DNA from: Acidimicrobiia bacterium
GTDB taxonomy: Bacteria > Actinomycetota > Acidimicrobiia > IMCC26256 > JAENVU01
Reading direction: 5' to 3'
Length of the DNA stretch: 64,000 nucleotides
NCBI GenBank assembly: GCA_031362155.1
Contig: JANLRZ010000180.1
Location: 31,023-95,022 of the forward strand
The notes under the pieces were generated by a model that saw nothing but the letters and a program-made list of their open reading frames with translations, was not told the origin of the DNA and did no database searches. Shown here in pieces: positions 14,316-54,190 of this stretch (the first letter of the stretch is position 1; the number at the start of each line of letters is the position of its first letter). The position numbers and the translations under genes are program-made.

Positions 14316-14423
14316 CGCGTCCCGGGGCGATTCGACTCAAGTGCCATTCCTGGTAGGTCGAAGGACAGGGTTGGCGCCGCGACGCTGTTTGTGCGACGCG
14401 CCGCCGGGATGGTGGGGGACCCA

Positions 14424-30815: not shown

Positions 30816-30888
30816 GGCGCCACTCTTCCACGACTCCGATACCCGGGGGGTGCCACGCTCGGCCCGCGCCGAGTGCGAGGCTTCCACC

Positions 30889-34033: not shown

Positions 34034-36442
34034 TCACAGGTACTGGTGCTTCACCAGATCGCGGGTTGCGAACCAACCGGGGATCGCAGGGAGGTAATAG
34101 AAGACGAGTTGGTTGGCCAGGGCCGCGGCGACCGCGACATCGCGATCGACGCCGAAGGAGACGAGGGCGGCGGAGAGGCCAACGGTGCCGACCGCGGTGG
34201 ACCCGCCGGGAACGGGCACCGAGTTGGCGATGGCAACGACCGCGATGTTGGCGGCGAGGAGCGCCCAGTAGGACGTGTGCCCGCCCACGGCGATGAGACA
34301 CGCCTGGAGACACCAGGTCGCGAGCAGCAGTGCCGCCGCGTTTCCCGCCACCAACAACACGAGATGTCGGGGTGAGCGCAGCGCGTCCCAAACGGTGCGA
34401 GCGGCCCGGGTGATGGCGGGAAAGACGAACCGGCGGACACGAGGAAGGACGACAACGACCGCACTGACGAGGGCGGCGACCACCACGATGAGGACGAGCG
34501 TGGCCAGGAATCCATCGGTGGGGATGAGCGAGAGGTCGACTCGTTGCGGATCGAGGGAGAGCGCGAGGACGAAGAGGATGCCGGACGCGATGAGGGCACC
34601 GGCCGCGCCCAGGATCCCACTGGCAGCGACCGCCGAACTGAGGTCGACGCCGACCTTCTGGAGATAGCGCACCTGCATCGCCTGTCCACCGATGGCCGGG
34701 ATCGCCAGGTTCGAGAACGACATACCGAGTTGGACCTCCGTGGTGCGCCAGAGTGGAAGGCGTATACGGACGGTTCCCTGCAGGCCGATCGCGTACCCGA
34801 CGTTCGAGACCAGCGCATACCCGACCGCGAGGAGCAGCCACTCCCACTCCGCCGCACGGAGCGCTGCCCACACGTCGCCGGTGCCGCCGAGTTCGGAGAG
34901 CAGCACCGCGATCGCGACGAGCGCACCCAGGGCCATGGCCGCGCTGCGCCGACCGATCCGATACATCCGGGTGAGTTCGGGTGCTTCGATGCCGACGGCC
35001 GCCGCGCCCACGGTTCGGAGCCGCCCGAGTCCGCCGACGACCTCGCGCCGCCGGGCACCGACGCGGGGTGCCGCCGCAAGTGCCGCCGGCTGCAACCGCG
35101 GCAAGGCTTCCTTGACCACCGACGCGCCGACCACGTCGATCGCAGTGTTCACGGCGCGCTCGGGGCCGACGAGCGCGGCCGTCGTCGCGAGCATGGTGGC
35201 GACGTCTTGAGCGATGGCTTCCGGCCGGCCGGTCGAGGTGGCGCCGTCGAACCCGACGACGTACGGCTCGCGCCCCACCATGATCACGTGATTCGTGTCG
35301 AAGTCGTTGTGCGCAATTCGTGCGCGATGGAGTGCGCAGACGTTCTCCCAGATCCGCGTGAGCACCGCGTCGTCGATCGTCTCGGGATCGACGTCGGTGA
35401 GGACCCGACCCACGACGGGGCGCTCGACGAGGACCGCGGCTCGAGGGCCAGCCCGGCCGGCGGCGACGATCTCGGGAACCGTCACACCCGCTTGCTTCGC
35501 GACCAGCATGAGGAACGCCTCGTGTTCGACCTGTTGCACGCGCGTGAGTGCCAAGCGAGGCCCCGAGTCGCGGTACACGATCAGGCTCCACAGCTTGGCG
35601 AAGATGCGGGACTGGGCCTCGTCCCGCCCGACCACTTTGATGCGCAGCGGCCCGTCGTCGTCTTCGGCGTGAACGACGGTCGAACCACTGGGCTGATGAT
35701 CCGAGAGCCGCGCGTGACGGGCTTGGATCCCGAGCAACTGGAGTGCGGCCACCACATCCGGGATGGTGGGTCGCATGCCTGGCGATCCGAAGATCAGGTG
35801 GACGCCCGATCCGACGCCCCACCCGAGTGCGACCCCGGCGAAGAGCCCGACGGGAATCGCGTTCCCCAGGTAGAGCGCGGATATCGCGAACCCGCCGACG
35901 AGGAGCCAACCGAAGATGCGGGTGGGGCGACGGACATATGGTGAGGCCACCGTGATGATCGCGACGATCACCGCGATGCGCACTGCCGGGAATGACGGTG
36001 ACTCGCCGAACCGGGCCGCGTTCCGAACGCTGCGGAAGATCGACTCGTTCTCCACGACGAGCCCACCGACCGCGCGCGAGATGGCCCACGCGAGCACGCC
36101 CGCGATGAGGAGATCGCGGGCGAGACTGACCCGCCGGATCACGATCGCGGCGACCACGACCAAGCCCACGGCCCAGAGCGCGCCCAACCGGTACAAGGTG
36201 CGGAAGAACGGCGCGAGCGCGTTGGGCAGCGTGTTGAAGAGGTCGAACAGCGCCTTCTCCGTGGCGGTCGTCGATCCGACGTGGCGAGTTGCCGCGACGA
36301 CCAGGATGATCGAGATCGAAACCGCGACCCAATCTGACGTCCGTCGGCGTCGACCACCTTCACCGGCCCGACGGAAGTAACGACGCCGCCAGCTCGGAAC
36401 GTCGATCGTCGGTTCGGTTGAGCTGGCCGGTGCTGGCTTCAT
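34034..36442 (-). CDS. Membrane protein with PAP2-like TM region, kinase-like domain and LPG-synthase/flippase-like TM domain
   Basis: SFPAVR and YLGNAIP TM block; HEAFL..AGVTVPE..HRARIAHND kinase-like segment; C-terminal TM bundle ending QLVFYYLPAIPGW. Confidence 0.78.
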   Translation of the reverse strand: MKPAPASSTEPTIDVPSWRRRYFRRAGEGGRRRRTSDWVAVSISIILVVAATRHVGSTTATEKALFDLFNTLPNALAPFFRTLYRLGALWAVGLVVVAAIVIRRVSLARDLLIAGVLAWAISRAVGGLVVENESIFRSVRNAARFGESPSFPAVRIAVIVAIITVASPYVRRPTRIFGWLLVGGFAISALYLGNAIPVGLFAGVALGWGVGSGVHLIFGSPGMRPTIPDVVAALQLLGIQARHARLSDHQPSGSTVVHAEDDDGPLRIKVVGRDEAQSRIFAKLWSLIVYRDSGPRLALTRVQQVEHEAFLMLVAKQAGVTVPEIVAAGRAGPRAAVLVERPVVGRVLTDVDPETIDDAVLTRIWENVCALHRARIAHNDFDTNHVIMVGREPYVVGFDGATSTGRPEAIAQDVATMLATTAALVGPERAVNTAIDVVGASVVKEALPRLQPAALAAAPRVGARRREVVGGLGRLRTVGAAAVGIEAPELTRMYRIGRRSAAMALGALVAIAVLLSELGGTGDVWAALRAAEWEWLLLAVGYALVSNVGYAIGLQGTVRIRLPLWRTTEVQLGMSFSNLAIPAIGGQAMQVRYLQKVGVDLSSAVAASGILGAAGALIASGILFVLALSLDPQRVDLSLIPTDGFLATLVLIVVVAALVSAVVVVLPRVRRFVFPAITRAARTVWDALRSPRHLVLLVAGNAAALLLATWCLQACLIAVGGHTSYWALLAANIAVVAIANSVPVPGGSTAVGTVGLSAALVSFGVDRDVAVAAALANQLVFYYLPAIPGWFATRDLVKHQYL

Positions 36443-39701: not shown

Positions 39702-40559
39702 ATGTCATCTTCGAGCCCCGCGTCGCTCGCCGAACTGCTCGAACTCGAGCGGCTCGACCGTGATCTGTTCCGCGGTCAGAACGAACCGGGAGCGCGCGAT
39801 CGGTTCTCCCTCTACGGCGGGCAGGTCGCGGCGCAAGCACTCGCGGCGGCGGGCGCGACGGTCAGCGACGATCGGTTGCCGCATTCGTTCCACGGCTACT
39901 TCCTCCGGCCCGGTCAGGTCGACCGACCGGTGATCTTCGATGTGAACCGCGATCGAGACGGCGGTTCGTTCTCCGCCCGCCACGTGCGCGCGGTGCAGGA
40001 TGGTGAGGTCATCTTCTCGATGCTCGCCTCGTTTCACACCGAGCGCGACTCGCCGGTGTTCGACGCGGTGCCGGCACGCGACGCACCCGATCCCGAGACT
40101 CTGCCGTCGCGCCCCTCGATCGCGGCGCTCGTCGAGGTGCGGGAAGTGACGCCCACCCGGATCGTCGGCCGACAGATCCGGCATCCCGATTGTGTGTGGG
40201 TGCGCACGGTCGCGCCATTGCCCGACGATCCGCTCGTCCATGCGTGCGCGCTGGCGTACGCGTCCGACCTCGGGTCTGGATTCGGTCAGACCTACGTGCC
40301 CGGTCTGGCGACGGGCGGGCCGAGCATCGACCACGCCGTGTGGTTCCACGCCCCGTTGCAGGCCGATGAGTGGATGTTGCTCGACCTCGCGCCGCGGAAG
40401 GCGCGCTCGTCGCGGGGCGTGTACGACGGGTCGTTGCGCAATATCGAAGGTGAACTCGGTGCGGTGATCGCCCAGGAGATGCTGCTGCGCGAACTCGTGC
40501 TCGACGATGAGACTCTCCAACGGGTGGCCGACTTCCTCGGTGTCACGCCGGAGGAGTAA
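39702..40559 (+). CDS. tesB: Acyl-CoA thioesterase II
   Basis: YGGQVAAQAL, HSFHGYFLRPG, RDGGSFSAR, ALAYASD, SIDHAVWFH, AQEMLLR. Confidence 0.9.
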   Translation: MSSSSPASLAELLELERLDRDLFRGQNEPGARDRFSLYGGQVAAQALAAAGATVSDDRLPHSFHGYFLRPGQVDRPVIFDVNRDRDGGSFSARHVRAVQDGEVIFSMLASFHTERDSPVFDAVPARDAPDPETLPSRPSIAALVEVREVTPTRIVGRQIRHPDCVWVRTVAPLPDDPLVHACALAYASDLGSGFGQTYVPGLATGGPSIDHAVWFHAPLQADEWMLLDLAPRKARSSRGVYDGSLRNIEGELGAVIAQEMLLRELVLDDETLQRVADFLGVTPEE

Positions 40560-40579: not shown

Positions 40580-42934
40580 TCAGCGATGCGCGTCGCCGCG
40601 CCAGGGTTCAGCCTTGAGGTCGGGGTCGTATTCACGGAGCGGATGGCGGTTCGGGTCGAGCCACGCGTCGGTGTCCCACGGTTCGAATGCGTTGGTCACG
40701 TTGGCGAGACCGGTGGTTGCCAGTTCGGGGTAGTGACGCAGGATCACCGACTTCAGGTTGTTGTCGTCGACCCACTGAATTCCCTCGTCGCTGTAGACCT
40801 CGGGTCGGTAGTCGTCGGTGTAGAAGCGATCGGCCTGGAGTCGACGGCTCGCGTTGAGGATGAAGATCTGGAACATCGTCTCACCGAACCCGAACTTGGT
40901 CGGTCGGTGGGATTCGGCGAGTGTGCCGATCATGAGGTCGAGGTTCTCGACGTTGTCGCCGTAGACCTCGGTCAGCGTGCGAACGACGTCCGTGTCGTCG
41001 GTGAGGTCGTCGAAGGTGCGGATCGGGTTGAGTCCGAGCTGACGGCGGAACTCGTTGTAGCGGGGCACGCCTCGCTCCCGGGCGCGCAGAATGTCGATCG
41101 CACCCATGTCGAACACGGGGTTGCCCGGAATGCTGAGCTCCTGCATGAACTTCGGGAAGTTGTTGAGGACGAGTTGGCCGGGGTGCTGGTTGCCGAAGGA
41201 ATAGAAGAGGCTCGCCATGCCGATGGCATCGGTGACCTTGGGCGAACCGGCTTGTCGGCTGGCGACGAACGGCAGGGACTCGATCAGCGCGCCGGAGCGG
41301 AAGTCACGCAACTCGAGCGTTTCCGGCAGCAATGAGTGGAGCCGGTACACCTCGACGAACTCCTCGGAGAGCCCGTACGCAACGTCATGCCGGTTGATCG
41401 AGTTGCCGATCAGCCCGCCCAGCTCGGGGTTGGAGACCTTGAACTCGGCCACGGCCTTGCGATGTTCGGGCTTGCGGAACTTGTACGTGATGATGCCGTA
41501 CCAGTTGGAGTTGAGCGCCATGGTCAGGGTTTGGTTCGGCAGGATGGCCGGTGTCCACTCGGTGGAATGGATCTTGGCCATGACCGCGGCGTTGACCAAA
41601 CGCGCGATGTTGAACAGCCGGTTGTCGTCCCAGTCGGGATGCGCGCGCTTCAAGTGGTCACAGATTGCGTTGTGTTCGCGGGCGAACAGCGTGTGGAGCA
41701 TCGACAGACCGACCCACCAGTTGCGGATGAACCCGCTGTCCTCGACGCCGTTCGCGCCCCGCGGCAAGGTGTCGCCGTCGAGGCGGAGCTTGCCGTCGAC
41801 GCCGCTGCGCAACCGGTCCTGGGTTGCCTGGTTGCTTCCGTAGATCTGCGACCCGTCCCACCAGTGGGTGACCTCGTTCAGGTGAGTCACCGGCGTCGAC
41901 TCACCGAACTCCCGCCGTGTCGGATCGGGCTGGGTCCGTCCGATGAACATGTTCGACTGGCGGAATCGTTGACGGGCCGGATCGTCCTCGTCGAGGGGGA
42001 TCTCGATGAGGTCGCGCTGGAGGATCTCGCCGTGGGTGACCCAATCGTGATTCTGGAACTGGATCCACGAGGCGGCGAGCAGATTGAGGAATGGCACCTC
42101 TTTCATGGTCTCGCCCCGCGTGAGCAACTTGCGGCTGATCGTGCGCGGGTTCGGGGAGAGGAGTTCTTCGTCGGTGGGTCGCCGGATCGAGGAGTTGGCG
42201 ACGTTGCGTAGGAAGCGCGTGCCGGCGGCGCCCTCTTTGGGATTGTCGAGGCGGTTCCAGCTCCCGTCGGCGGTGCGGAAGTGGGTGACGCCCGGCGGTG
42301 GGGTGAGGTCGTCGGGCGCGAAGCCGGTTCTGACGTTCGTGGGATAGGACGAACGCAGGTTGTCGGCGTCGAGCTTGTTGCGCATGTAGGCGAGCGTGAG
42401 GATCCCCTGCGCGAGCTTCTTGTTGTACCAGTTCGTCCACACCTCGGCTCGGTAGTTCTTCCCGACGATGCGCGTCGCGGCGTCCCAGACCACGTTGGCC
42501 ACGGAGCCGCCGGCGTGGCCGACCAGATAACGCAGTCGTCGCCAGTGGGGGTCGGACCGGTCGGCTTCGGTCGGCGTCGGAAGCTCCGGTGCGGGCGGAG
42601 GCGCGAGCACGACACTGGCGTCGAAGAAGTGGAGTTCGGGAACGAAGACGTTCACTTCGGCGTGTGCGTTGGCGCGGGCCGAGTTCAACAGTTCGACCCA
42701 TTCGGCGTGGTCGGGTTGGCGTTCGAGGGCCCGGGCGAGATGGTCCGCAGCCGCCTCGTAGCGCTCACCGAGGAAGTGAGCGAGGCCCAGCAGCGCCTCG
42801 CTCTCACCCTTCGGGTCGTCGGCCGCGAGGTCGGCCAATGCGTCGACCGCGCCGTCGAAGTCTCGAGCGCGCAGATGCTGCACCGCTTTCTCCCGGGCGC
42901 CGTCCCAGTCTCCCTGCGCGTCGTGTTCGTTCAT
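40580..42934 (-). CDS. Heme peroxidase-cyclooxygenase family protein, fatty-acid alpha-dioxygenase-like, with TPR-like N-terminus
   Basis: LAASWIQFQNHDW (distal His), THWWDGSQIYGS, AKIHSTEWT, EEFVEVYRLHSLLP (catalytic Tyr and proximal His), ERGVPRYNEFRR, ASRRLQADRFYT. Confidence 0.9.
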   Translation of the reverse strand: MNEHDAQGDWDGAREKAVQHLRARDFDGAVDALADLAADDPKGESEALLGLAHFLGERYEAAADHLARALERQPDHAEWVELLNSARANAHAEVNVFVPELHFFDASVVLAPPPAPELPTPTEADRSDPHWRRLRYLVGHAGGSVANVVWDAATRIVGKNYRAEVWTNWYNKKLAQGILTLAYMRNKLDADNLRSSYPTNVRTGFAPDDLTPPPGVTHFRTADGSWNRLDNPKEGAAGTRFLRNVANSSIRRPTDEELLSPNPRTISRKLLTRGETMKEVPFLNLLAASWIQFQNHDWVTHGEILQRDLIEIPLDEDDPARQRFRQSNMFIGRTQPDPTRREFGESTPVTHLNEVTHWWDGSQIYGSNQATQDRLRSGVDGKLRLDGDTLPRGANGVEDSGFIRNWWVGLSMLHTLFAREHNAICDHLKRAHPDWDDNRLFNIARLVNAAVMAKIHSTEWTPAILPNQTLTMALNSNWYGIITYKFRKPEHRKAVAEFKVSNPELGGLIGNSINRHDVAYGLSEEFVEVYRLHSLLPETLELRDFRSGALIESLPFVASRQAGSPKVTDAIGMASLFYSFGNQHPGQLVLNNFPKFMQELSIPGNPVFDMGAIDILRARERGVPRYNEFRRQLGLNPIRTFDDLTDDTDVVRTLTEVYGDNVENLDLMIGTLAESHRPTKFGFGETMFQIFILNASRRLQADRFYTDDYRPEVYSDEGIQWVDDNNLKSVILRHYPELATTGLANVTNAFEPWDTDAWLDPNRHPLREYDPDLKAEPWRGDAHR

Positions 42935-43056
42935 TGACCTCTGCCTCGGGTTCGATGACCGATGCGACGTTCCCCGCCCGTCGCGAGCGGAAGGTACCAC
43001 CGACACTGGCCAACGGGCACTGGCGACTGGGTTCGGTCTACCGTGCGCTGCCCCTG

Positions 43057-44595
43057 ATGAAAGGACCGACTCTCGTGCCTCCTTCCGTGTCTCTCGGCTG
43101 GCGGGTGAAGCGCTGGTTCTGGAACACGCTCACGACGCTCAAGTACCACGGAGAGGTCCCGACCGTGATCGGTGCGCCCCGTCCCGATGACCGCGAGATT
43201 CGGCTGGTTCCGTTTCGGTCGAAGTATCCCGCGATCCCGATCAACGGCGCCCTCGTGGCCGATGAAGTGCCCGCCGATGAGGTCGAGCAGAAGAAGGTGG
43301 TGTTCACGAAGGTCCAGCACCGACTCCTTGATTGGATCCCGCCGACGACGGACGGGCTGCCCGCGGTCGCCGAGTCGGCGCAGGTCGCACTGGACGAGGC
43401 CTACACGCCCGCGCACCGTCGGTGTTTTCCCGAACCGGTGCGCCCATCCGAACTGGGGCTCGGCGCGCTGGCCGTCGCGAGTCCCTACGCGAGTTATCTC
43501 CACGCGTCGGGTCCGGGCACGTTTCGGTGGGACGTGAGTGTGCTCGCCGACTTCGAGTGCCACGCCGGGCTCGTGCCCCCGGGGGCCGTGGTCGACTTCA
43601 CACTCGACGTGAGCACCGGCGCGCTCGAGCCGATCCGGATCGAGGCCAACGGGGCCAGCGTGCAACCGGGAGCCGCCGGGTGGGCCGACGCGGAGCGGAT
43701 GGCGGTGTGTTCGGTGACGACCCACGCGGCCATGGTGCGCCACTTCAACTGGTTGCACCTGACCGCCGGCCAACCGCTCGAGGCCGCCACCCGGAATCGG
43801 CTCCCGGCCAACCACCCGATTCGACGGCTGCTCTGGCCACACGTCTTCGGGACTCACGCCGGCAACGCACTGGTCACGGACGTGTTGTTGTCTCCGGGCG
43901 GAGACTTCGAGGGGATCTTCAGCTTTACCCACCGCGGCATGTGCGAACTGTTCGATGCGACCTCGACGAGTTTTGATCTGGCCTCGATCAACCCGATCCT
44001 CGACGCGTCCCGGCGGGGCATGACCCAGAGCGCGGTCGCCACCCCCGCATCGGACAACTGGAGCAGTCTCTACGCGGTGATGTTCGACCATGCGCAGCGT
44101 TATCTCGCGGTGTATTTCCCGTCGGACGAGGATGTGGTCGCCGACCAGGCGCTGGGTGCCTGGATCGATGACCTCGACCATTTCCTGCCGAACGGCACCC
44201 GCGGGGTGCTCGGCGAGACGGTGACGGCCGCGGGCGTCGCGTCGCTGTTGGCCACGGTGATCTACCTCGCGACCGTGGAGCACGAGATCACGGGCAGTGG
44301 TCTGTGGGACTACCAATTGTGGACCGACACGTCGCCGGTCCGGATCTACGAAGACGGACGCCGGTTGCCCGTCGACGTGTATCAGCGACTCGTCAACGCG
44401 AATCTCACGCTGAACGTCCATCGCACGATGTTGCTGAACGACACCGTGATCGGTGTCGCGCTCGACGAGCGAGGGGCCGGCGCATTCCGAGAGTTTCAGC
44501 AGGACCTGCTGGGGCTCCAGGCGCGCCTCGATCGGGGCACCCCGGCACCGTGGCGGCTCGAGCCGCGTCACCTCAAGGCGAACATCAACGCGTAG
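43057..44595 (+). CDS. Lipoxygenase (divergent, catalytic domain only)
   Basis: VRHFNWLHL (two Fe-His), LP.NHPIRRLLWPH, TVEHEITG (third His), C-terminus LKANINA; start uncertain (43057 or 42955). Confidence 0.85.
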   Translation: MKGPTLVPPSVSLGWRVKRWFWNTLTTLKYHGEVPTVIGAPRPDDREIRLVPFRSKYPAIPINGALVADEVPADEVEQKKVVFTKVQHRLLDWIPPTTDGLPAVAESAQVALDEAYTPAHRRCFPEPVRPSELGLGALAVASPYASYLHASGPGTFRWDVSVLADFECHAGLVPPGAVVDFTLDVSTGALEPIRIEANGASVQPGAAGWADAERMAVCSVTTHAAMVRHFNWLHLTAGQPLEAATRNRLPANHPIRRLLWPHVFGTHAGNALVTDVLLSPGGDFEGIFSFTHRGMCELFDATSTSFDLASINPILDASRRGMTQSAVATPASDNWSSLYAVMFDHAQRYLAVYFPSDEDVVADQALGAWIDDLDHFLPNGTRGVLGETVTAAGVASLLATVIYLATVEHEITGSGLWDYQLWTDTSPVRIYEDGRRLPVDVYQRLVNANLTLNVHRTMLLNDTVIGVALDERGAGAFREFQQDLLGLQARLDRGTPAPWRLEPRHLKANINA

Positions 44596-46216
44596 GGGTT
44601 TCCTTTCTCCCCGGCGTGAGGGCGGCCTCCGGATTGGCAAGGAATCGCAATGCGGTCACCGAAGGACAGAAGAGATAGATCGAACCCACGGTCTGGATGA
44701 ACCGGGGGAATCCGGTGAGCACAACGGGTTCGGCGCCGGGGAGCGGGATCTCGAACGAGCTGGTCGCTTCGCGGTTGGCGCCGATGATCGGATCGTTCGT
44801 CCGGGTCACGCGCGGATCGTGCAGGCCGATGTTGATCCAGTCGTACATGACCGCCTCGAACTGCGCAATGAGGCTCGCACTCATGAAGTGGCCGAGTAGT
44901 CCGCGGCGGTGTCCGTCGTTGGGGTTGGCCGGGTCATACGGCGGGCCGTACGGCACACCGCGCCGAACCAGCGGCCGGGTGTAGTTGGCGCTGCGCTGGA
45001 CGATGCGCCCGTCCCTCGGGTTCGCGCGTCGGATGTGAGAACCGATGGGGCAGTGGGTGCCGTCGGAGTCGTCGAGCGCCGCGATCTCGTCGTCGAGGAA
45101 GTCGAAGTCGTTGAGGTTCTCGTCCGCCAGGGGAGGTGGGAGTCCGGGGCCGGTGAATGACGACTCGGCGTCCCCACCGACGGTCCAGTGCGACAACGAC
45201 AGCGGAACACCATTGCGCCACCTCCCCATCAACTTGGCCGCGATTCGTTCCTTGTCCCACACGATCTCGGGCGGGCCTGCGGGTTCGCCAACCGCGCGGC
45301 GCCGGTCGAGTTCGGTCGTGACCTCGAGGGCACTGCGCTCGAGGAACTGCTCGAACCCGTGGACGTCCTGTTCCATCATGCGGAAGGCGCTGAAACAACC
45401 GTTGACCCCGAGTTCGATCGTGACCGACCCCTCGGTCGCTTCGGGCATCTGCCAGGTGACGCCGGGGAAACTCGTCCGGTAGTGCTCGGCGGGCACCTCG
45501 GCCGTGCCGGGGTCGTCGATCCGGCCGAGGAGCACGGTCCCCACGGACGCGATCGGCTGGGCGTCGGCGCGGCCGGCGTACTGGCCCTTCACGACGAACC
45601 GGGGTTGGGAGATGCTGTCGCGGTAACCAAAGTGGACCGTGTCGCGGTCGGCGGCATCACCGGTGTACGTGTCGAACGTCGCGCCGTCGATGCGGGTGAC
45701 CACGGTGAATGCCTGCGACTCCGCCCACGCGGACTCGAGTCGGGTGGCGACCTCGTCGAGCGCGTCTCGGTGCTCGAGCGCGTGAATGGTCCACATCAAG
45801 TGGACGTGGTCGGCGTTGCCGAGCCCGTCGATCCAGTGCTCGGGTGCGCTGTCGGCGATGTCGCCGACTTTGCGGGCCCGGTGTGGTGCACCTTCGAGAA
45901 ACTCGTCGGGGAAGGTGGCCAGCCAGTCCGGCCGCAGGCCGAGGGCCCCCAGCCCGGCCGCCGTGATACCCACGTTCACGCAGGTGGCCGGCTTGGTGCC
46001 CTCCTCCCAGACCTCGGCCGTGGTCAGGGTCGGCATCCCATTGGTCCCGGTGACGATCGCAGCGATCGACGCCCGGGCCGCGGCGGGGTTCGCAACCCGC
46101 ACCACGATGTGGCGCACGAAGCGCATGTTGTAGCCGCGCAGGATGTTTCCTTGGATGTCGGCGAGGATCGTGTCGTCCGAGATCGTGACGCCGGGTGGAA
46201 GGTCAATCGTGGTCAT
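44585..46216 (-). CDS. Dyp-type (dye-decolorizing) heme peroxidase
   Basis: DIQGNILRGY, HFGYRDSISQP, CPIGSHIRRANPRD, LVRRGVPYG. Confidence 0.9.
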   Translation of the reverse strand: MTTIDLPPGVTISDDTILADIQGNILRGYNMRFVRHIVVRVANPAAARASIAAIVTGTNGMPTLTTAEVWEEGTKPATCVNVGITAAGLGALGLRPDWLATFPDEFLEGAPHRARKVGDIADSAPEHWIDGLGNADHVHLMWTIHALEHRDALDEVATRLESAWAESQAFTVVTRIDGATFDTYTGDAADRDTVHFGYRDSISQPRFVVKGQYAGRADAQPIASVGTVLLGRIDDPGTAEVPAEHYRTSFPGVTWQMPEATEGSVTIELGVNGCFSAFRMMEQDVHGFEQFLERSALEVTTELDRRRAVGEPAGPPEIVWDKERIAAKLMGRWRNGVPLSLSHWTVGGDAESSFTGPGLPPPLADENLNDFDFLDDEIAALDDSDGTHCPIGSHIRRANPRDGRIVQRSANYTRPLVRRGVPYGPPYDPANPNDGHRRGLLGHFMSASLIAQFEAVMYDWINIGLHDPRVTRTNDPIIGANREATSSFEIPLPGAEPVVLTGFPRFIQTVGSIYLFCPSVTALRFLANPEAALTPGRKETPTR

Positions 46217-46219
46217 GGT

Positions 46220-46873
46220 TCACCAACCGATCTCGAGCGCGTGGCGGATCTGGGCGACGGTGTATCCCGGGTACGAGCGGTAGGCGAAGAGCTGCACGTT
46301 GGTAGGCGGATCCGTTCGCTGGCACTCGTCGATGAGCAGGACCAACCGTCGACTCATCTTGACGATGTCGCGGTCGTCGGCGGGACCGAGCGCCAATGCA
46401 CTCGCCGGGTAGTCGAGCTGGAGGGCATCGCGGGTCCGCACCCACTCGATGAAATCGTCGGGGTACTGCTCGACCGGCAGCGGAGGCGCGTCATTGATGA
46501 AGGGGAGCAACGCGTCGAATGCCGAACCCACGTTGTAGATGAAGTCGCGGATGTAGTTGGCGAAGTCACCGTCGTAGAAGCTGAACATGCACAGGTTGTC
46601 ACCGACGATGGTGAACCGCGCGAAGTGCACGATCTGGGTGTTGTCGAGCCCGGCGATGACCTCTTGGACGGCGCCGGCCAGGGCCTGGATCAATTTCGCC
46701 CGACCGAACGGAGAGCCGTCGGCGAGGGGCATGACCAGGTTCATCGGGATCTGGATGTTGTCCGACGGATTCGTCGAGAACACGCGGACCGGGATCTGCG
46801 GCGGGTCACGCCGACGCCAGATCGCGGTCAGCGCCCTGATCAGCAGTCGTTCGCCCAGTCCTGGGGTGGTCAT
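46220..46873 (-). CDS. Hypothetical protein of the HFARF...SFYDG type, co-transcribed with DyP
   Basis: IVHFARFTIV..LCMFSFYDGDFANYIRDF..FDALL; 3-nt gap to the DyP start; RBS ggag. Confidence 0.7.
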   Translation of the reverse strand: MTTPGLGERLLIRALTAIWRRRDPPQIPVRVFSTNPSDNIQIPMNLVMPLADGSPFGRAKLIQALAGAVQEVIAGLDNTQIVHFARFTIVGDNLCMFSFYDGDFANYIRDFIYNVGSAFDALLPFINDAPPLPVEQYPDDFIEWVRTRDALQLDYPASALALGPADDRDIVKMSRRLVLLIDECQRTDPPTNVQLFAYRSYPGYTVAQIRHALEIGW

Positions 46874-46960
46874 GGTGGCTCCTCAAGCTCCGCCCTGCAC
46901 CGGCTCGGACGACGGACGGTAGCCCGCGCGCGCGGGACGCGGAATTCGGTACGGTGGGCC

Positions 46961-48190
46961 ATGAACGTGATCTCGCCCGAGCTGGTCGGCGCCCTCATCG
47001 ACGCGATGGGTCCGTCGTTCCCCGAGCACGTTGCCGGAACCCGTCCGATCCACGCCAAGGGCATCGGCGTCGGGGGCAACTTCGTGGCGAGCTCGGTGGC
47101 GTCGAAGTACTGCGTGGCAAAGCAGTTCGACGGCCGCGTGGTCCCGGTGACCGTGCGGTTCTCGAACGGCAACGGTCAACTGGATCCGGACTTCCGGCTC
47201 CAGGTGCGGGGCATGGCCGTGAAGTTCTTCGCGGGCGGCACCCGGGAGACCGGGAGAGCCGGCGCTCGCGCCGAGCGCTCCTATGTCGGGATGCACTACG
47301 ACGACGGTCCGATCGTGGCCCGACCGGGCGAGGAGATCGCCGAGACCGACCTCGTCTGCATGTCGGCGCCGGTGTTCATGGCCCAGAGCGCCGAACGTCT
47401 CCTCGAGTTCGAGCAGAGCTACCGCGCCGTCAAGGTTCGCCGCGCCGGTCTGATGAAGCGCATCAAGTCGCTCCTCACGATGAGTCCGCTGCTCCCGCTG
47501 GAGTCCGGGGTCACGATGTCGGGCAACGAGGGATTTCTGCAGTGGGCCCGGACCTACCCGCCGGCCCAGGCATTCCTGCTTGCCAACGCTGGGCAGCGGC
47601 TCCCGGCGAGTTACGCGCGGGTCGTGTACGACGCGGTCCACGCATTCGAGGCGCAGGGATCGACGGGTACCCGTCGGATGGTGCGGTTCACGCTCGAACC
47701 GTCCGACGGCGTCTTCACCACCGGTGGACCCGACCCGGCCCAAACGCCGATCGCCTCGTTTCTCCGTCCGGCCGACCTCAACGCTCACGGGTCGGAGCTG
47801 GGCGCCGACTACCTCCAGCGCGAGCTGCGAGAGCGCCTCTCGTACGCGCCGGGCCGATTCAACGTGCGCATGCAGATCGCCGACCCGTCCGACGACACGG
47901 CGGACCCGACGGTGGCGTGGCCGATCAACCGGCGCCGGGTCCTGATGGGCACGCTGACCTTGACCCACGTGCTCGCAGATCAGGTCACAGGCTGTGAACT
48001 CCTGAGCTTCAACCCCGGGCGTCTCCTGCCGGGGATGGCGATCTCGGACGATCCGGTCCTCGCGGACCGGTCCGCGGTGTACGAGGAGTCGTATCGGCGT
48101 CGCGCCGCGGCGCGGGCGGGGGGCTCGATCACCCCGTCGTCGTCGTCTCCGAAAGCGTCCTCGTCGGGTTGCCCGATGGGGTTGTCCTAG
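46961..48190 (+). CDS. Small catalase-fold heme protein (catalase-related, hydroperoxide-lyase/AOS/SrpA-like)
   Basis: RPIHAKG distal His, VRFSNG, RGMAVKF, F.PGRLLPGM..SDDPVLADRSAVYEES (proximal RxxxY); 409 aa. Confidence 0.85.
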   Translation: MNVISPELVGALIDAMGPSFPEHVAGTRPIHAKGIGVGGNFVASSVASKYCVAKQFDGRVVPVTVRFSNGNGQLDPDFRLQVRGMAVKFFAGGTRETGRAGARAERSYVGMHYDDGPIVARPGEEIAETDLVCMSAPVFMAQSAERLLEFEQSYRAVKVRRAGLMKRIKSLLTMSPLLPLESGVTMSGNEGFLQWARTYPPAQAFLLANAGQRLPASYARVVYDAVHAFEAQGSTGTRRMVRFTLEPSDGVFTTGGPDPAQTPIASFLRPADLNAHGSELGADYLQRELRERLSYAPGRFNVRMQIADPSDDTADPTVAWPINRRRVLMGTLTLTHVLADQVTGCELLSFNPGRLLPGMAISDDPVLADRSAVYEESYRRRAAARAGGSITPSSSSPKASSSGCPMGLS

Positions 48191-50878
48191 CTATTCGTGG
48201 TCCGACACCGCGCTCGTGAGGTCACGACGAGCCCGCGCGATCTCACTGCGGACGTATTCCATCGCCTGATCGAACTCCATCGCCATTCCCGCGGCGACGT
48301 TGGCGTCGAACTCCGCATCGCCGAGTTTGGCCCGTAGGTCGTCGAGCACCTTCGGGAGGCGAACGGTCATGCTGATGCCCTGGCGGGTGCTCATGCCGTA
48401 GATCTGCGCCGCGATTTCGGGCTGGTCGAGCCCGTCGAACAACACCGTACCGAGGGCGAGCGTCGTGACGACGCTGCCGTGATTGCCGGCTCGGTGGTAC
48501 CGGGTCAACGCGGTGTCGAGGAGTTCGAGCGCCCGTTCCGGATGGCCGAGGACTCCTTCGAGCCCGGCGATCTCGCGGATGAAGTTGACCTCGAAGAATG
48601 CGAGGCGCTGTTGGCGGGCGTATTCGAGCGCGTCACGCATGATGACCATCGCCCGTACCGGGTCCGAGTCGGCGTAGGCGCGTCCGTGGCCGACTTCGGC
48701 GAACGCGATCCAGTAGGGATTACCGAGTTCGTGCGCCGCCGCGATCGCTGCGACGGCGAGGGCCTGGGCTTCGTCGGATCGATCGATGCCGGGCAACACC
48801 GCGAGGGGCAGGACGAGACCGACGACGCGAGTGAGTCCGGGCCGACGAGCGGCTTCGTCACAGATCTCGAACATCGTGTCGAGCCGTCCGGCGTACCGGC
48901 ACGCGAACGCCAGCCAGGCGTTGCTCCATCCGATTTCGAACGTCTCGTACTGCGGGTCCGCTTCGAGGGCCAGTGCCCGTTCGGCATACTCGATGGCTAC
49001 CTCGGGTCGGCCCGTGAGCGCACACACACAGGCCGCGGTGTACAGCCGAGGGAGCTGCACCACGTTGGCCGCAGTGGCCGCGGGAAGGATGTCTTCGACC
49101 CAGCCGAACGACTCGAAGCGCTGGAGGGCCATGGTCAGCATCGTGGTGTGGGCGGCGATGGTGACCGCCGTATCCAGTTCGTCGTGGGACGCCGCCCACC
49201 GGAACGCGATACGGAGATTGGCGAACTCGCGCTCGACCCAGTCGAGCGCGTCCCGCTGATTGGGACTGTTCCAGTGCGACCAGCGGATCTCGGCGTGTTC
49301 GGCGAAGTGCCGCGCGTGGACCCGACGCACGTCGTTCCGGGTCCCGGTCTCCTCGAGTTGTCCGTCGCCGTACTGGCGGATCGTCTCGAGCAGGGCGAAG
49401 CGCATCCGCCCGGCAGACTGATCGGTGGTGATCAGCGACTTGCGGACGAGCGAGTCGAGGAGATCGAGCACCGTGAACTCGTCGATCCCCGCCGAGGCGG
49501 CGATGGCGGTGGCGGCCTCGAGGTCGAACCCGTCGGCGAAGACCGAACACCGGTCGAGCATCAGTCGTTCGTCGTCGGTCAGCAGGTCGTAGGACCACGA
49601 CACCGCCTTGCGGAGCGTCTGGTGGTGTTCGAGATCGTGACGTGACCCGGACAACAGCCGGAACCGATCCGAGAGGCGGTCGCGAACATCGGCCGGGCTC
49701 ATCGAGGTCATGCGGGCGGCCGCCAGTTCGATGGCCAGCGCGAGACCGTCGAGGCGCCGGCAGATCTCGACGACTGCGGCCGCGTCGGTGGGGTCGTCAT
49801 CGGCGAAGGCCGGGTTGACCGACCGGGCTCGTTGGCGGAACAACTCGACCGCCGCCGACGTGGATCCCGCCGTGACGTCGAGGGTCGGGACGGGCCAGAC
49901 GTGCTCGGCGCCGAGGCGAAGACTCTCGCGGCTGGTGGCGAGGACCTGCACCACCTGGGTGGTTCGGAGCAACGCATCGACGAGATCGGCCGCGGCGGCG
50001 TGGACGTGCTCGCAGTTGTCGAGCACGATCAGGAGTCGGCGACCCGTCACGGCCTGGGCGATGCACTCGGTGACGGTGTGTCCCGCCATTGGCGTGACCC
50101 CGAGCACGGCGGCGACGGCATCGGGAAGTGATTCGGAGGCGCCGATCGGCGCGAGCGCCACCACCCAGACCCCGTCGGTGAACTCGTGGGCCAACTCGGC
50201 AGCGGCCTGGAGGGCCAGGCGAGTCTTGCCCACGCCGCCCGTCCCGGTGAGAGTGACGAGCCGGTGTTGGCGCACGAGCGTGCCGACTTCATCGAGCTGG
50301 TCCTCGCGACCGATGAAGCTCGTGGTCTGGGTCGGTAGGTTCCCGAGGGTGGCGCTGAGGGTGCGCGGCGGCGGGAAGCTCGATCTGAGCCCATCGGCGT
50401 GGACCTGGAAGAGGCGGGTCGCGTCACCGAGATCGCGGAGGCGATGTTCACCGCAGTCGACAAGTTGGATGGTCTTGAGGTTCTCGACGACGCTCGCCGT
50501 GGAGTTGTGCACGAGGATCTGGCCGCCGTGCGCGGCGTCCATCACCCGAGCCGCTCGGCTCAGGGTGAGTCCGAAATAGTCGCGGTCCCGTTGCTCGGCT
50601 TCCCCCGTGGCAATCCCCATCCGTACGGGGAGATCCAATGCGTGTTGGGCCTCGATCGCGGCATCGATGGCCGCCTGGCCCGAGTCGAATGCCGCACAGA
50701 CGCCGTCGCCGGTGTGCTTGAACAGGTCGCCGCCGTGGGCCGCGACTGCGCTTCGCAGCACGGCGTCGTGGGCGTCGAGTGCGGCACTCATCGTGTCGTG
50801 GTCGTCCCGCCAGCGCCGGGTCGAACCCTCGATGTCGGTCAGCAGGAAGGTGACGAGCCGTTGCGGACGTTCGGCCAC
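48191..50878 (-). CDS. Class III cyclase domain + STAND (NB-ARC-like) ATPase + TPR-like helical repeats
   Basis: FLLTDIEGST, KHTGDG, RAARVMDAAHGGQ, GTGGVGKTRL Walker A, LIVLDNCEH Walker B, RLDGLALAIELAAAR; start chosen. Confidence 0.88.
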   Translation of the reverse strand: MAERPQRLVTFLLTDIEGSTRRWRDDHDTMSAALDAHDAVLRSAVAAHGGDLFKHTGDGVCAAFDSGQAAIDAAIEAQHALDLPVRMGIATGEAEQRDRDYFGLTLSRAARVMDAAHGGQILVHNSTASVVENLKTIQLVDCGEHRLRDLGDATRLFQVHADGLRSSFPPPRTLSATLGNLPTQTTSFIGREDQLDEVGTLVRQHRLVTLTGTGGVGKTRLALQAAAELAHEFTDGVWVVALAPIGASESLPDAVAAVLGVTPMAGHTVTECIAQAVTGRRLLIVLDNCEHVHAAAADLVDALLRTTQVVQVLATSRESLRLGAEHVWPVPTLDVTAGSTSAAVELFRQRARSVNPAFADDDPTDAAAVVEICRRLDGLALAIELAAARMTSMSPADVRDRLSDRFRLLSGSRHDLEHHQTLRKAVSWSYDLLTDDERLMLDRCSVFADGFDLEAATAIAASAGIDEFTVLDLLDSLVRKSLITTDQSAGRMRFALLETIRQYGDGQLEETGTRNDVRRVHARHFAEHAEIRWSHWNSPNQRDALDWVEREFANLRIAFRWAASHDELDTAVTIAAHTTMLTMALQRFESFGWVEDILPAATAANVVQLPRLYTAACVCALTGRPEVAIEYAERALALEADPQYETFEIGWSNAWLAFACRYAGRLDTMFEICDEAARRPGLTRVVGLVLPLAVLPGIDRSDEAQALAVAAIAAAHELGNPYWIAFAEVGHGRAYADSDPVRAMVIMRDALEYARQQRLAFFEVNFIREIAGLEGVLGHPERALELLDTALTRYHRAGNHGSVVTTLALGTVLFDGLDQPEIAAQIYGMSTRQGISMTVRLPKVLDDLRAKLGDAEFDANVAAGMAMEFDQAMEYVRSEIARARRDLTSAVSDHE

Positions 50879-51082
50879 CTCCCCAGGATGCCATACCCGC
50901 TGGATGTACTTGCCAGTTCGACGACATCTGGCGGAGAGGGTCATGAGAGGTGCAGGTCGAGCCGGCGCCCGAGTACCGTCCAGCGGGGCAGTCGGGTGGG
51001 TGCAACTCGCCAGCCTGGCGCGGGAGGGCAACCGGGTGCTGGAGGCGACGATGACGTGCCAATCCGAGAGGTGGCCGTCGTG

Positions 51083-54000
51083 ATGATCCGACGGATCCCC
51101 GTGCTCCTGCGTGGGCTCACTCCGGTGTTCGCGCTCCTGCTCCTGGGTACGTCGCTGATCATGGGCCAACAGACCGACGTGATCGCGGCCATGCATCCCG
51201 AGGGGTGTCCGGCCGGAACGCCGGTCGAGTTCCAGTGGTCGCCGACGGGGACGCGCAACGAGCAGGAGTTCGTCGGCGTGGTCGAAGCGTGGAACTCCCA
51301 CCGCCTCCGGCGGGTGCCGGCGGGAACCGGTGGTGTCGCCGCCGCCAACTCCTGCAAGGTGGCCCTCAAGGACTCGGATGAGGTCGACCTGACCGGGCGG
51401 GTCAAGTCGCCGCACAGCATCGCCCGGCAATGGATGTGGACCGACATCCTCGGGTTCACGGCGCTCTACGGACTCTTGCTCGTCGGGCTCCTCCTCAACG
51501 AGCGGGTGCGCGCGCAGACCGCGGCCGCGCCCGACGAGCGCGCGCGCCCGCTGGGCCGCAATCTCGCGCGCACCGAACGGGAGCTCAACCGGTGGTTGCG
51601 GCACGGGTGGTGGTTCGCGGCGGTCGGGATCGCCGTGGCGATGGACTGGGCGGAGAACGCCGCGCTGCTCGGCCAGTTCCGCCGAGCCTGGGATCACGTG
51701 GTCCAGTTCGGAACGGTGTCGGCCGACCAGGTGGACCTCGGCTGGGTCCACGCGTTCGGGGTAGTGAAGTGGTTGGCGCTCGCGGCGCCGGTGGCGTTGC
51801 TGGTAGTGGCCTATGTGATCCGGGCCGTGCAGCGATTGGTCACGCTCCGAACCGTGATTCGCAAGCAGCTCCCGCTCCTCGCGGTCGCGATGGTGTTCGG
51901 GGTGATCCTCCTCGTGCCACCCCAAGGCCTCGACGCCGTCCGCGGGTTGTCGCTCACGCGTCTCTTCGGGACGCTCGCGGTGGTGCTCGTCCTCGGCCAG
52001 GTCCTGACCCTCGCCGGCGCGACCGCGTTGCGGAAGCAGCATCTGGAGGGGCAGGAAGCCCCGGTTCGTTCGACCGCCGAGTCACGGCGCCGCCGGCTGG
52101 CACCTTCGGTCGCGCTCCTGGCCGTGGCGTTGGCCCTGGCCGTCGTCGGCTCCCTGCTCGGATGGAAGGGTCTCCTGGTTCCAGCGGTGCTCCTGGGCGC
52201 GCTCGCGCTCGTGTCGGCGTTCATCGACTTTCGTGAGCCGTCCGGCGCCACCCCGCCGGAGCGCACGTTCGGTGACGCCACGATCGACGACTTCGATCTG
52301 CGGGTCTCGGTGTCGAGCGTGGCCGGGGCCTTGGTCGTGGTCGGGTTCGGCGCCGCGCTCGTCGAGACGGCGGCGTTGGATTTCGCATACTTCAGTTCGG
52401 CCGACGGCGTCGCGGCGCGGATGGGGATCGGTCTGGCCATCCTCGGTATGGCGCCGGCCGTGCGTGGATGGTTCCGACGGGTCGCGTGCTGGCTCGAGGC
52501 TCGATCCGACGCGCAGAAGACGCTCGTCGCAGTCCTCCTCACACTCCTGGCTCTACCGGGATTGATCTTCCACGACCCGGATCTCAACCTTCGTTTCGCA
52601 CCACTATTCGGCGCGGTGGTGGTGCTCGCCATGTTCCTCGGCGGGATGGCGCTCTTGCTCGTGTGGGCCGATCGCCTGGCCTTCTTCCTGGCTCGCAACG
52701 AGCAACGGCGAATGGTGTTCCTCCCCACGATCCTTCGGGAGTTCGGCGTCTCACGGCCGCCCGTCGTCAGCTTCGTGGTCGTGTGGGCTGTGGTGGCCGG
52801 CATCGGATTTCGCGGGACCGGTCACGACGTACGGGTCGTCACCGGATCGAAGGTTGCCGAGCAGTCGCTCGACTCGATCGTGGGCGCGTGGATCGATCGC
52901 CACCCGGGTCTGGCGACCGCGAACCCGCCGAACGCGGCCGCACCGGCGTTGCTGGTGAGTAGTTCCGGCGGCGGGATCCGCGCCGCGTACTGGACTGCCG
53001 CCGTGCTCGATTGCGTGACCGAGGGACGGACCGTCGGTTCCAACCCGTGCGCGCGCGAGACCGACCCCGCCACCGTTGCGCGTCGGCGAGGCGCGCTCCT
53101 CGCGATGTCGGGCGTGAGCGGTGGCAGTTTGGGTATCGCGGAGTACGTGAGCGAGACCGTGCCGGTCGGCATGGGCGAACGACATCCCGTCGCGGCGACG
53201 CACTGGTACGACGAGAAGCTCGGCGTGGATTTCCTTTCGTCGACCCTGGCCGCCTACTTGTTCAACGACGGTCTGAACTCACTGATCCACCCGGACCACC
53301 CAGTCGATCGGGCGGCGATCACCGAACGGTCCTGGGAGAAGCCGTGGTCCGATGGGCGCCTGGGCCGTCACTACCTCTCGGACCAGGCCACCCACACCCA
53401 GCCGCTCCTATTGCTGAGCGGCTACAGCGTCGAGGACGGCTGTCGGTTCTCGGCGTCGATCCTCGCCGCCAACGCGGGGCGGACCGCACAACAGTGCGGG
53501 AAGGCCGCGACCGGCCGTGACGGCGAGTTGCTGGCGAGCACCGACCTGCCCGACGTGCTGTGTGAAGGGACCGATGTTCGGTGGTCGACCGCGGCCCTGC
53601 TCTCGGCGCGGTTCCCTTGGATCAGCCCGACCGGCTCGATCGGTAGGGGTGCCTGCGGCGACCCCGCCGCGCACACGCAGGTGGCCGACGGCGGGTATCA
53701 CGAAGCGTCGGCTGCGAGTGCGATCAACGAACTGATGCCGCGGGTGCACGAGATCATCGACGAGCAGCAACAGGGCTGCGTCGTTCCCCTCTTCCTGCAG
53801 ATCGACAATGGGTATTCCGGACCGTCGTCGACGGCGGATTCTGCGGTCGGCCAGATCACTGCTCCGATCACGGGGATTCTGAAGTCGACCACCGGTTGGG
53901 AAGCGGCGGCACGGGCCGACTCGCGGCGGCTCTTCGGCGGTGCGTTCGGGAACCATCCGCGCGCAACGGTGAACGGCTCTCCGGTCGAGCGGTGGTTCCA

Positions 54001-54190
54001 CATCGAGACCCGAGCGCATCCGGGCGCGGAAGCTCCGCTCGGTTGGGTGCTCTCCAAGACCGCGACCGCGGATCTCAAAGACCAGCTCAAGGTGAACCGC
54101 GCCGAAATCGAGCGGTTGCGGAACGTTCTGGACGCAGAGACCGACCTCGAGTGCGCAGCCCCGCTCGTCGACCCGTCGACCCCGGGCTGA
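51083..54190 (+). CDS. Large polytopic membrane protein with C-terminal patatin-like lipase domain
   Basis: Many TM helices, then SGGGIRAA (52967), GVSGGS (Ser 53117) and ADGGY (Asp 53687); start within 51071-51083. Confidence 0.82.
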   Translation: MIRRIPVLLRGLTPVFALLLLGTSLIMGQQTDVIAAMHPEGCPAGTPVEFQWSPTGTRNEQEFVGVVEAWNSHRLRRVPAGTGGVAAANSCKVALKDSDEVDLTGRVKSPHSIARQWMWTDILGFTALYGLLLVGLLLNERVRAQTAAAPDERARPLGRNLARTERELNRWLRHGWWFAAVGIAVAMDWAENAALLGQFRRAWDHVVQFGTVSADQVDLGWVHAFGVVKWLALAAPVALLVVAYVIRAVQRLVTLRTVIRKQLPLLAVAMVFGVILLVPPQGLDAVRGLSLTRLFGTLAVVLVLGQVLTLAGATALRKQHLEGQEAPVRSTAESRRRRLAPSVALLAVALALAVVGSLLGWKGLLVPAVLLGALALVSAFIDFREPSGATPPERTFGDATIDDFDLRVSVSSVAGALVVVGFGAALVETAALDFAYFSSADGVAARMGIGLAILGMAPAVRGWFRRVACWLEARSDAQKTLVAVLLTLLALPGLIFHDPDLNLRFAPLFGAVVVLAMFLGGMALLLVWADRLAFFLARNEQRRMVFLPTILREFGVSRPPVVSFVVVWAVVAGIGFRGTGHDVRVVTGSKVAEQSLDSIVGAWIDRHPGLATANPPNAAAPALLVSSSGGGIRAAYWTAAVLDCVTEGRTVGSNPCARETDPATVARRRGALLAMSGVSGGSLGIAEYVSETVPVGMGERHPVAATHWYDEKLGVDFLSSTLAAYLFNDGLNSLIHPDHPVDRAAITERSWEKPWSDGRLGRHYLSDQATHTQPLLLLSGYSVEDGCRFSASILAANAGRTAQQCGKAATGRDGELLASTDLPDVLCEGTDVRWSTAALLSARFPWISPTGSIGRGACGDPAAHTQVADGGYHEASAASAINELMPRVHEIIDEQQQGCVVPLFLQIDNGYSGPSSTADSAVGQITAPITGILKSTTGWEAAARADSRRLFGGAFGNHPRATVNGSPVERWFHIETRAHPGAEAPLGWVLSKTATADLKDQLKVNRAEIERLRNVLDAETDLECAAPLVDPSTPG

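Follow-up and report, generated by a model that had tools for sequence, protein, structure and literature searches.

In the window analysed here, a 64,000-nucleotide stretch of DNA from an uncultured Acidimicrobiia bacterium (GenBank assembly GCA_031362155.1, contig JANLRZ010000180.1, positions 31,023 to 95,022 of the forward strand), seven contiguous genes at positions 40580 to 54190 encode an alpha-dioxygenase (DOX), a lipoxygenase (LOX)-like protein, a dye-decolorizing-type haem peroxidase (DyP), a protein of the unannotated HFARF family, a catalase-related protein, a cyclase-STAND protein, and a putative membrane lipase. The cluster probably combines two modules that together would oxygenate fatty acids and process the hydroperoxides; DOX and the LOX-like gene form module A, and the catalase-related, HFARF, and DyP genes form module B. 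The presence of these genes, their family membership, their catalytic residues, their conserved linkage in other genomes, and their natural fusions are direct observations. The genes are listed below by their positions in the window, followed by an adjacent acyl-CoA thioesterase gene; the models of the first five rest on the guanine-plus-cytosine (GC) content at the three codon positions (GC1 to GC3) and on relatives.

40580-43006, minus strand: DOX (alternative start: ATG at 42934)
43057-44595, plus strand: LOX-like protein, 512 amino acids (aa)
44585-46216, minus strand: DyP, 543 aa
46220-46873, minus strand: HFARF, 217 aa
46958-48190, plus strand: catalase-related protein, 410 aa
48191-50944, minus strand: cyclase-STAND protein, ~917 aa (start set by GC3)
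51083-54190, plus strand: putative membrane lipase, 1035 aa (start set by codon-position GC and a 1042-aa relative)
39702-40559, plus strand: acyl-CoA thioesterase II (matches to Acyl_CoA_thio, 4HBT_3, and 4HBT_3C with expect values (E) of 6e-22 to 2.6e-15)

The seven genes are paired divergently as DOX/LOX-like, DyP plus HFARF/catalase-related, and cyclase-STAND/membrane lipase. An earlier note on this DNA had described this arrangement, which was found in place once two gene starts had been corrected (see below).

That the genes belong together, as the same note had proposed, is borne out by their neighbourhoods in other genomes. A LOX-like family profile, run against one genome per species (185,579 species), yielded 149 loci, and the neighbourhood counts given here refer to the best 80 of these, each read with 10-kb flanks. 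A DOX gene lies within 10 kb of the LOX-like gene, usually adjacent to it, in 75 of the 80 loci, and the commonest arrangement is a same-strand pair in which DOX precedes the LOX-like gene by a few bases. Such loci span Acidimicrobiia, Pseudonocardiaceae, Geodermatophilus, Mycolicibacterium, Acidobacteriota, and Rokubacteria, and they are also present in Myxococcota, Burkholderiales, Verrucomicrobiae, Bacteroidota, and Nitrospira. The full set of DOX, LOX-like, DyP, HFARF, and catalase-related genes recurs in 11 further genome bins of Acidimicrobiia/Actinomycetota, where identities range over 36-95% and no fewer than three gene orders occur, and an orthologous cyclase-STAND gene accompanies it in 10 of these 11 loci. 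The closest relative, locus L006 from a metagenome-assembled Acidimicrobiia genome, is syntenic across the entire region with 86-98% protein identity.

In addition to this pairing and to the 11 five-gene loci, four in-frame fusions tie the genes to one another. DyP and LOX-like domains are encoded in a single frame with no internal stop in three loci from different studies (L003:6090-9740(+), L057:8060-11503(+), and L062:5569-8799(+)), giving proteins of ~1,070-1,200 aa with a short Ala/Pro/Ser-rich linker. The fourth fusion (L007:8114-11494(+); 1,127 codons) joins DOX (residues 34-612) to the LOX-like protein (residues 630-1127). Such fusions are strong evidence that the fused enzymes act in one pathway. 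The true fusions, together with overlapping stop-to-stop open reading frames (ORFs), also caused single-linkage clustering to merge the DOX, LOX-like, and DyP families, and seed-based labelling was used instead. In 14 loci of the Burkholderiales type (among L064-L078; for example, L066:11523-13139), the LOX-like gene is directly followed by one for a RoxA-like di-haem cytochrome c (PF21419, E 1.4e-15), which seems to occupy this position as an alternative hydroperoxide partner. Some of these loci also carry an upstream 1034-aa patatin-plus-membrane protein.

Among the individual proteins, DOX matches An_peroxidase in Pfam (PF03098, E 1.9e-110) and, among solved structures, the alpha-dioxygenases of rice (4kvj, E 5.7e-116) and Arabidopsis (4hhr, E 9.7e-106), with cyclooxygenases following at ~1e-17. 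The alignment to plant alpha-dioxygenases extends over ~540 residues with identity in the 40% class, and an N-terminal extension of ~240 aa shows sub-threshold matches to TPR. The motifs can be read directly: the distal HDW, VYRLH with the tyrosine three residues before the proximal histidine, KIHSTEW, and SRRLQ. When aligned with the rice enzyme, the last two contain the equivalents of its His-311 and Arg-558/559, residues that position the fatty-acid carboxylate. The tyrosine, the proximal histidine, the His-311 equivalent, and the Arg-Arg pair show no variation among the DOX proteins encoded next to LOX-like genes (66 of 66). Judged by alignment, the defining residues of fatty-acid alpha-dioxygenases are thus all present in DOX, and it should oxygenate free fatty acids. 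The two plant enzymes of known structure are its best sequence match and have the catalytic residues in common with it; unlike them, the window DOX is bacterial, possesses an extra N-terminal region, and is genetically coupled to a LOX-like gene. Plant alpha-dioxygenases give chain-shortened aldehydes.

The match of the LOX-like protein to Pfam Lipoxygenase (PF00305, E 3.7e-8, 32.8 bits versus a cut-off of 23.6) covers only profile positions 339-556 of 673. The best match to a solved lipoxygenase reaches E 3e-11 over ~200 aa, that to coral 8R-LOX reaches E ~5e-5 over ~150 residues, and the protein lacks a PLAT domain. Across an alignment of 22 family members, three histidines (H229, H234, and H409) never vary, and they coincide with the ligand histidines of solved lipoxygenases. 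A protein search places 439 clusters in this family. A conserved Trp/Arg-rich helix is found both in the N-terminus of the LOX-like family (W..RR.FWN; 43057-43160 in the window) and in the HFARF family (LL.R.L.A.W.RR; 46220-46290). Speculatively, these N-terminal helices might be membrane-surface anchors.

The DyP stays slightly below the Pfam cut-off for DyP_N (27.3 versus 27.5 bits) and below that of TIGR01413 (4.6e-10; 39.3 versus 100.5). Among solved DyPs it matches 8re2/8re3 over its full length (E 1.9e-31), followed by fungal DyPs, and its distal Asp (FGYRDSISQP), distal Arg (VRRGVPYG), and proximal His (GSHIRRANPR) align with 8re3. The catalase-related protein matches Pfam Catalase (PF00199, 67.4 bits, E 1.6e-18), and among solved structures it is closest to 3e4w/3e4y (E 1.8e-31), a protein of Mycobacterium avium subsp. 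paratuberculosis. In the alignment with 3e4w, IHAKG provides the distal His and DRSAVY the proximal Arg...Tyr; with 410 aa, the subunit is well under 55 kDa. It is thereby assigned, by homology, to the small catalase-related haem proteins of the MAP-2744c type. MAP-2744c itself (33 kDa, 3e4w/3e4y), its closest solved relative, has the distal His and the proximal Tyr in common with it; the window protein differs in being ~90 aa longer, with an insertion between two matched stretches. The haem residues of the DyP and the catalase-related protein are intact, and both belong to the kinds of haem proteins that react with organic hydroperoxides.

HFARF has no match in Pfam, NCBIfam, or PADLOC, and none of its 230 homologous clusters carries a Pfam domain. 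Its AlphaFold2 model (predicted local distance difference test (pLDDT) score 83.5) shows a ferredoxin-like alpha+beta core, for which Foldseek returned ABM/SchA-like, ABM monooxygenase, and MupZ-type folds as best matches (best E 0.005, none significant). Since no match reaches E<=0.001, only a fold class can be assigned. Its gene invariably neighbours the catalase-related and DyP genes, either between the two or to one side of them. Operons of the order Catalase->HFARF->DyP also exist with no DOX or LOX-like gene nearby (L081-L086, including Variovorax guangxiensis and three metagenomic contigs), and it is on account of this separate existence that the window can be said to join a module A and a module B. 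Two of these operons (L081:1891-8439 and L085:5439-12096) each lie beside an AAA_16 STAND protein. The output domain of this protein is a cyclase in L081 (Variovorax) and a Ser/Thr kinase in L085, so that the sensor is kept and the output swapped. Module B may hence serve a more general hydroperoxide role.

The cyclase-STAND protein exceeds the Pfam cut-off for NB-ARC (28.9 versus 23.5), AAA_16 and TPR being below their cut-offs, and stays narrowly below that for Guanylate_cyc (21.4 versus 21.9); its cyclase part matches that of LipJ with 1e-19 and solved cyclases with 9e-14. The cyclase domain retains both metal-binding Asp residues, the Lys/Asp adenine pair, and the Arg, and it has Ser at the position of the transition-state Asn. 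By domain prediction, it is a sensor or regulator composed of a class III adenylate cyclase, an NB-ARC STAND ATPase, and TPR repeats. Mycobacterial proteins of the Rv0386 type (cyclase-ATPase-(TPR)-LuxR) show the same order of class III cyclase, STAND ATPase, and helical sensor. The window protein differs from them in that a Pfam scan revealed no DNA-binding domain and in that it is encoded beside oxygenase genes, a link with no earlier description. Cyclase-domain STAND proteins occur in 31 of the 80 loci, some of them with a LuxR helix-turn-helix end (L053); regulators of the Crp type that bind cyclic nucleotides (cNMPs) are present in 10 and extracytoplasmic function (ECF) sigma factors in six. 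A second, stand-alone cyclase-domain protein (31286-32686 (+), Guanylate_cyc E 2.6e-8) is encoded ~8 kb upstream of the cluster and is 37% identical to the cyclase domain of the STAND protein.

The last gene of the cluster is predicted to encode a protein with a hydrophobic, probably multi-pass N-terminal half and a divergent patatin-like C-terminal domain. It has no Pfam match even at E<=1, PF01734 included, and alignment by hhalign to an alignment of true patatins was not significant, with only the DGG motif matching. However, the motifs GGGIRA(AYWT), SGxSGGS [G(V/I)SGG], and DGGY are invariant and in order, both in 8 and in 38 sequences. The AlphaFold2 model is poor (pLDDT 47), and with this model Foldseek gave the effector CapV (E 0.017) as top match along with cPLA2-delta, neither of which reaches E 0.001. 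A full HMMER profile search of a library of 1.84 billion proteins retrieved 10,061 relatives at E<=0.001, compared to seven in a word-indexed search. Of 38 sampled relatives, nine match Pfam Patatin (best 1.3e-8) and none matches another lipase family. We thus assign the protein with moderate confidence as a putative, divergent patatin-like lipase. This family of ~1000-aa membrane lipases is large and essentially unannotated, most of the sampled members being devoid of a Pfam match. The acyl-CoA thioesterase gene is convergent with DOX and ends 20 bp from its 3' end; it lies beside the cluster only in the window and in L006, and its product might supply free fatty acid in addition to the lipase.

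From these components we infer a fatty-acid substrate, an order of steps, the products, and, if there is one, a signalling role. In the mechanism that we favour, the membrane patatin-like lipase, perhaps together with the adjacent acyl-CoA thioesterase, would release a free fatty acid. This would be oxygenated by the alpha-dioxygenase-type haem enzyme, making use of its Tyr radical and of the Arg-Arg pair as a carboxylate clamp. The LOX-like metalloenzyme might then either oxygenate a second position or, in the manner of epidermal lipoxygenase-3, isomerise the DOX hydroperoxide. The catalase-related protein and the DyP would reduce or rearrange the fatty-acid hydroperoxides, with HFARF conceivably acting as a cofactor-free helper or isomerase of ABM-like fold. 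Finally, the cyclase-NB-ARC-TPR protein would couple the system to cyclic AMP (cAMP), either by sensing a lipid product or by switching the cluster on. A further-reaching version, which we put forward tentatively, sees the cluster as a self-contained prokaryotic oxylipin signalling circuit, in which lipase-fed DOX/LOX lipids are read by cAMP-making STAND sensors via Crp-type regulators in Actinomycetota. According to this version, DOX and the LOX-like protein would constitute an ancient and widespread bacterial two-enzyme unit, and DyP plus HFARF a new class of hydroperoxide-converting partners.

Several points weigh against the proposed mechanism, the first of them concerning the LOX-like protein. 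At the position of the fourth metal ligand (Asn, His, or Ser in lipoxygenases), the alignment of 22 members shows an invariant Gly (G413, in VEHEITGSG), and the C-terminus reads KANINA where lipoxygenases have a metal-binding Ile or Val. As the protein has neither a fourth iron ligand nor an Ile at its C-terminus, dioxygenase activity is uncertain, and we consider the protein to be a distinct, non-canonical branch rather than a standard lipoxygenase. Since the KANINA ending is conserved through the terminal Ala (one of the 22 members has Thr), a terminal carboxylate may still serve as a ligand. Canonical lipoxygenases furthermore require polyunsaturated fatty acids, and no desaturase or polyunsaturated-fatty-acid synthase was found among the flanking ORFs scanned. 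As Catalase->HFARF->DyP operons also occur independently of DOX and LOX-like genes, the substrate of module B need not be a DOX/LOX product. The patatin assignment of the window lipase is indirect, and an ortholog lies beside the cluster in only one of the 80 loci (L006, 94% identity), with a weak family match in L040. The 80 loci, moreover, share phylogeny, so that there are fewer independent associations than the raw counts suggest, and the activities of these exact enzyme families are read from sequence.

Some claims of the earlier note have to be adjusted accordingly. Its family calls hold for DOX, DyP, the catalase-related protein, and the cyclase-STAND protein; its LOX is a divergent LOX-like protein, its patatin has no Pfam match of its own, and HFARF is unannotated. 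Catalytic motifs had been reported for all the enzymes. This is correct for the putative lipase inasmuch as GGGxR/GxSxG/DGG are invariant, but the fold evidence is weak, and it does not extend to the LOX-like protein with its Gly at the fourth ligand position and a C-terminus other than Ile. The two independent oxygenation chemistries that had been envisaged are unproven, since one of them depends on this non-canonical lipoxygenase, and the supposed signal readout by the cyclase-STAND protein is one possibility, as the protein may equally regulate the cluster. The inclusion of a lipase in the cluster is justified in part: patatin lipases, which belong to six or more unrelated lineages, accompany 23 of the 80 loci, in many cases as the next gene downstream on the same strand, but the window's own lipase is conserved as an ortholog in L006 only. 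The role of the lipase would thus be conserved by replacement and not by orthology.

Other explanations can be advanced for the same genes. The cluster could be protective or catabolic, with module B detoxifying lipid or organic hydroperoxides under STAND control and alpha-oxidation by DOX shortening fatty acids, so that no signalling lipid would be made. This would be in line with the existence of Catalase->HFARF->DyP operons and an adjacent STAND sensor (with cyclase or Ser/Thr-kinase output) independently of DOX and LOX-like genes, with the established formation of chain-shortened aldehydes by plant alpha-dioxygenases, and with the ordinary chromosomal surroundings in the window, which include several hydrolases. 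We nevertheless regard it as unlikely, because the near-obligate pairing of DOX and LOX-like genes across phyla, the DOX-LOX and DyP-LOX fusions, and the recurrent dedicated lipases would be left unexplained, and because the conserved neighbours of the DOX/LOX pair include neither aldehyde dehydrogenase nor beta-oxidation genes. Alternatively, the substrate might not be a fatty acid at all (but, for example, a polyketide, carotenoid, terpenoid, or aromatic compound), and the cluster would make or degrade a specialised metabolite. The retention of the carboxylate-binding Arg-Arg/His set of plant alpha-dioxygenases in every one of the 66 DOX proteins argues against this, as do the recurrence of patatin lipases as accessories and the lack of polyketide synthase, non-ribosomal peptide synthetase, and terpene synthase genes among the conserved neighbours. 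Even when the non-canonical metal site of the LOX-like protein, the many aromatics that DyPs are known to oxidise, the likeness of the HFARF fold to ABM and MupZ-type polyketide tailoring proteins, and the cleavage of polyisoprene by RoxA-like cytochromes (as suggested by the family name) are taken into account, this appears quite improbable.

STAND NTPases, nucleotide cyclases, and patatin lipases are also classic parts of defence systems, and Foldseek ranks CapV, an effector of CBASS, first among its matches to the lipase domain, albeit without significance. One might hence imagine that the NB-ARC/TPR protein senses an invader, whereupon a cyclic nucleotide is made and the lipase and lipid-peroxidising enzymes destroy the membrane. 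None of the seven proteins (0/7), however, matches any PADLOC 2.0 model at E<=0.01, most loci outside the actinobacteria keep the DOX/LOX pair but have no STAND or cyclase gene, base composition is flat and the chromosomal setting ordinary, and an eLife survey of NTP-dependent conflict systems does not mention these enzymes, all of which renders a defence function very unlikely. Least of all do we believe in chance neighbours with no shared function. The window lipase and thioesterase are indeed conserved only in the closest relative L006, but the pairing in 75 of 80 loci, the 11 rearranged five-gene clusters, and the four in-frame fusions contradict mere chance for six of the seven genes and leave it possible for the lipase only.

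With respect to the gene models, the GC content of 64-70% throughout the window gives rise to many long spurious ORFs, and two initial choices were discarded. A 1283-aa ORF (48191-52042) considered as the STAND gene is too long by ~380 codons, its relatives measuring ~890 aa; these first ~380 codons are the lipase gene read in antisense (GC1 ~0.9 and GC3 ~0.75, versus GC3 ~0.9 on the plus strand). Conversely, a lipase start near 52100 was replaced by 51083, as a 56%-identical relative of 1042 aa covers 98% of the longer model. The cluster had also been called an island, a term that its composition does not warrant: its GC content (0.65-0.69) is the same as in the remainder of the window, is flat across it, and shows neither an island nor a recent transfer. 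On both sides the cluster is flanked by ordinary chromosomal genes, several hydrolases among them. Upstream lie two further lipid-related genes, one for an 802-aa protein with a membrane domain of the lysyl-phosphatidylglycerol-synthase type (34034-36442 (-)) and one for an Abhydrolase_3 esterase/lipase (29859-30947 (-)), neither of which is conserved with the cluster. Chromosomal content unrelated to the cluster includes a PAS-GGDEF-EAL cyclic-di-GMP protein (14253-16715 (+)) and two glutamine synthetase genes (11701-14252).

Every component of the cluster comes from a known superfamily, and the underlying logic of an oxygenase combined with a hydroperoxide-converting haem partner is already known. 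In Nostoc punctiforme, a 10S-hydroperoxide lyase of the catalase-related kind is combined with a linoleate 10S-dioxygenase (Brash et al. 2014, J Biol Chem 289:13101). This system resembles the window in pairing a bacterial dioxygenase of the cyclooxygenase superfamily with a separately encoded small catalase-related haem protein. In the window, however, DOX is of the plant alpha-type and not a 10S-DOX, a LOX-like partner is present, the catalase-related gene is grouped with HFARF and DyP, and the host is an actinobacterium instead of a cyanobacterium. The fusions of catalase-related allene oxide synthase and LOX known from corals and cyanobacteria (3dy5, 3fg1; Acaryochloris) parallel the DyP-LOX proteins of L003, L057, and L062 in that a hydroperoxide-converting haem domain is attached to a LOX; in the latter, the haem domain is a DyP and not catalase-related, and the LOX is devoid of the Asn/His and Ile ligands. 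The oleate-diol synthases PA2077/PA2078 of Pseudomonas aeruginosa are di-haem cytochrome c peroxidases (PMC4496055); this operon likewise oxygenates free fatty acids, and a second haem enzyme converts the hydroperoxide. A di-haem cytochrome c is also what the RoxA-like gene after LOX encodes in the 14 Burkholderiales-type loci. The Pseudomonas oxygenases are unrelated to those of the window, which has no di-haem cytochrome.

New are the near-obligate pair of alpha-DOX and LOX-like protein, the DyP as fusion partner, the HFARF family, and the link to a STAND cyclase. The supposition that such a combination is undescribed was upheld in that full-text searches returned no paper on the alpha-DOX/LOX pair, the DyP-LOX fusions, or the cluster, within a coverage that excluded most subscription papers, so that this absence is not proof. 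A 2026 review of bacterial lipoxygenases makes no mention of actinobacteria, operons, gene clusters, or peroxidases, a bioinformatic survey of bacterial lipoxygenases contains nothing on Actinobacteria or gene neighbours, and the accessible part of a Chem Rev octadecanoid review holds nothing relevant. Lipoxygenase genes have been estimated to occur in <0.5% of sequenced bacterial species (PMC6612559).

Going by the enzyme families assembled in it, the cluster looks like a bacterial counterpart of the oxylipin pathways of plants and animals. Bacterial oxylipin enzymology so far rests on few systems, namely Pseudomonas LoxA and the diol synthase, the cyanobacterial lipoxygenases, and the Nostoc 10S-DOX. 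To these, the present analysis adds a whole unstudied LOX-like family that is genetically tied to alpha-dioxygenases, to DyPs (natural fusions included), and to the unannotated HFARF family, and it has a bearing on how the lineages of plant alpha-dioxygenases and animal cyclooxygenases arose. Should the proposed chemistry hold true, these proteins would provide new biocatalysts for the oxyfunctionalisation of fatty acids, and DyPs and small catalase-related proteins, whose functions in nature have been established in few cases, would gain a class of physiological substrates. The cluster would then also offer a testable case of bacterial lipid-mediator signalling via cAMP.

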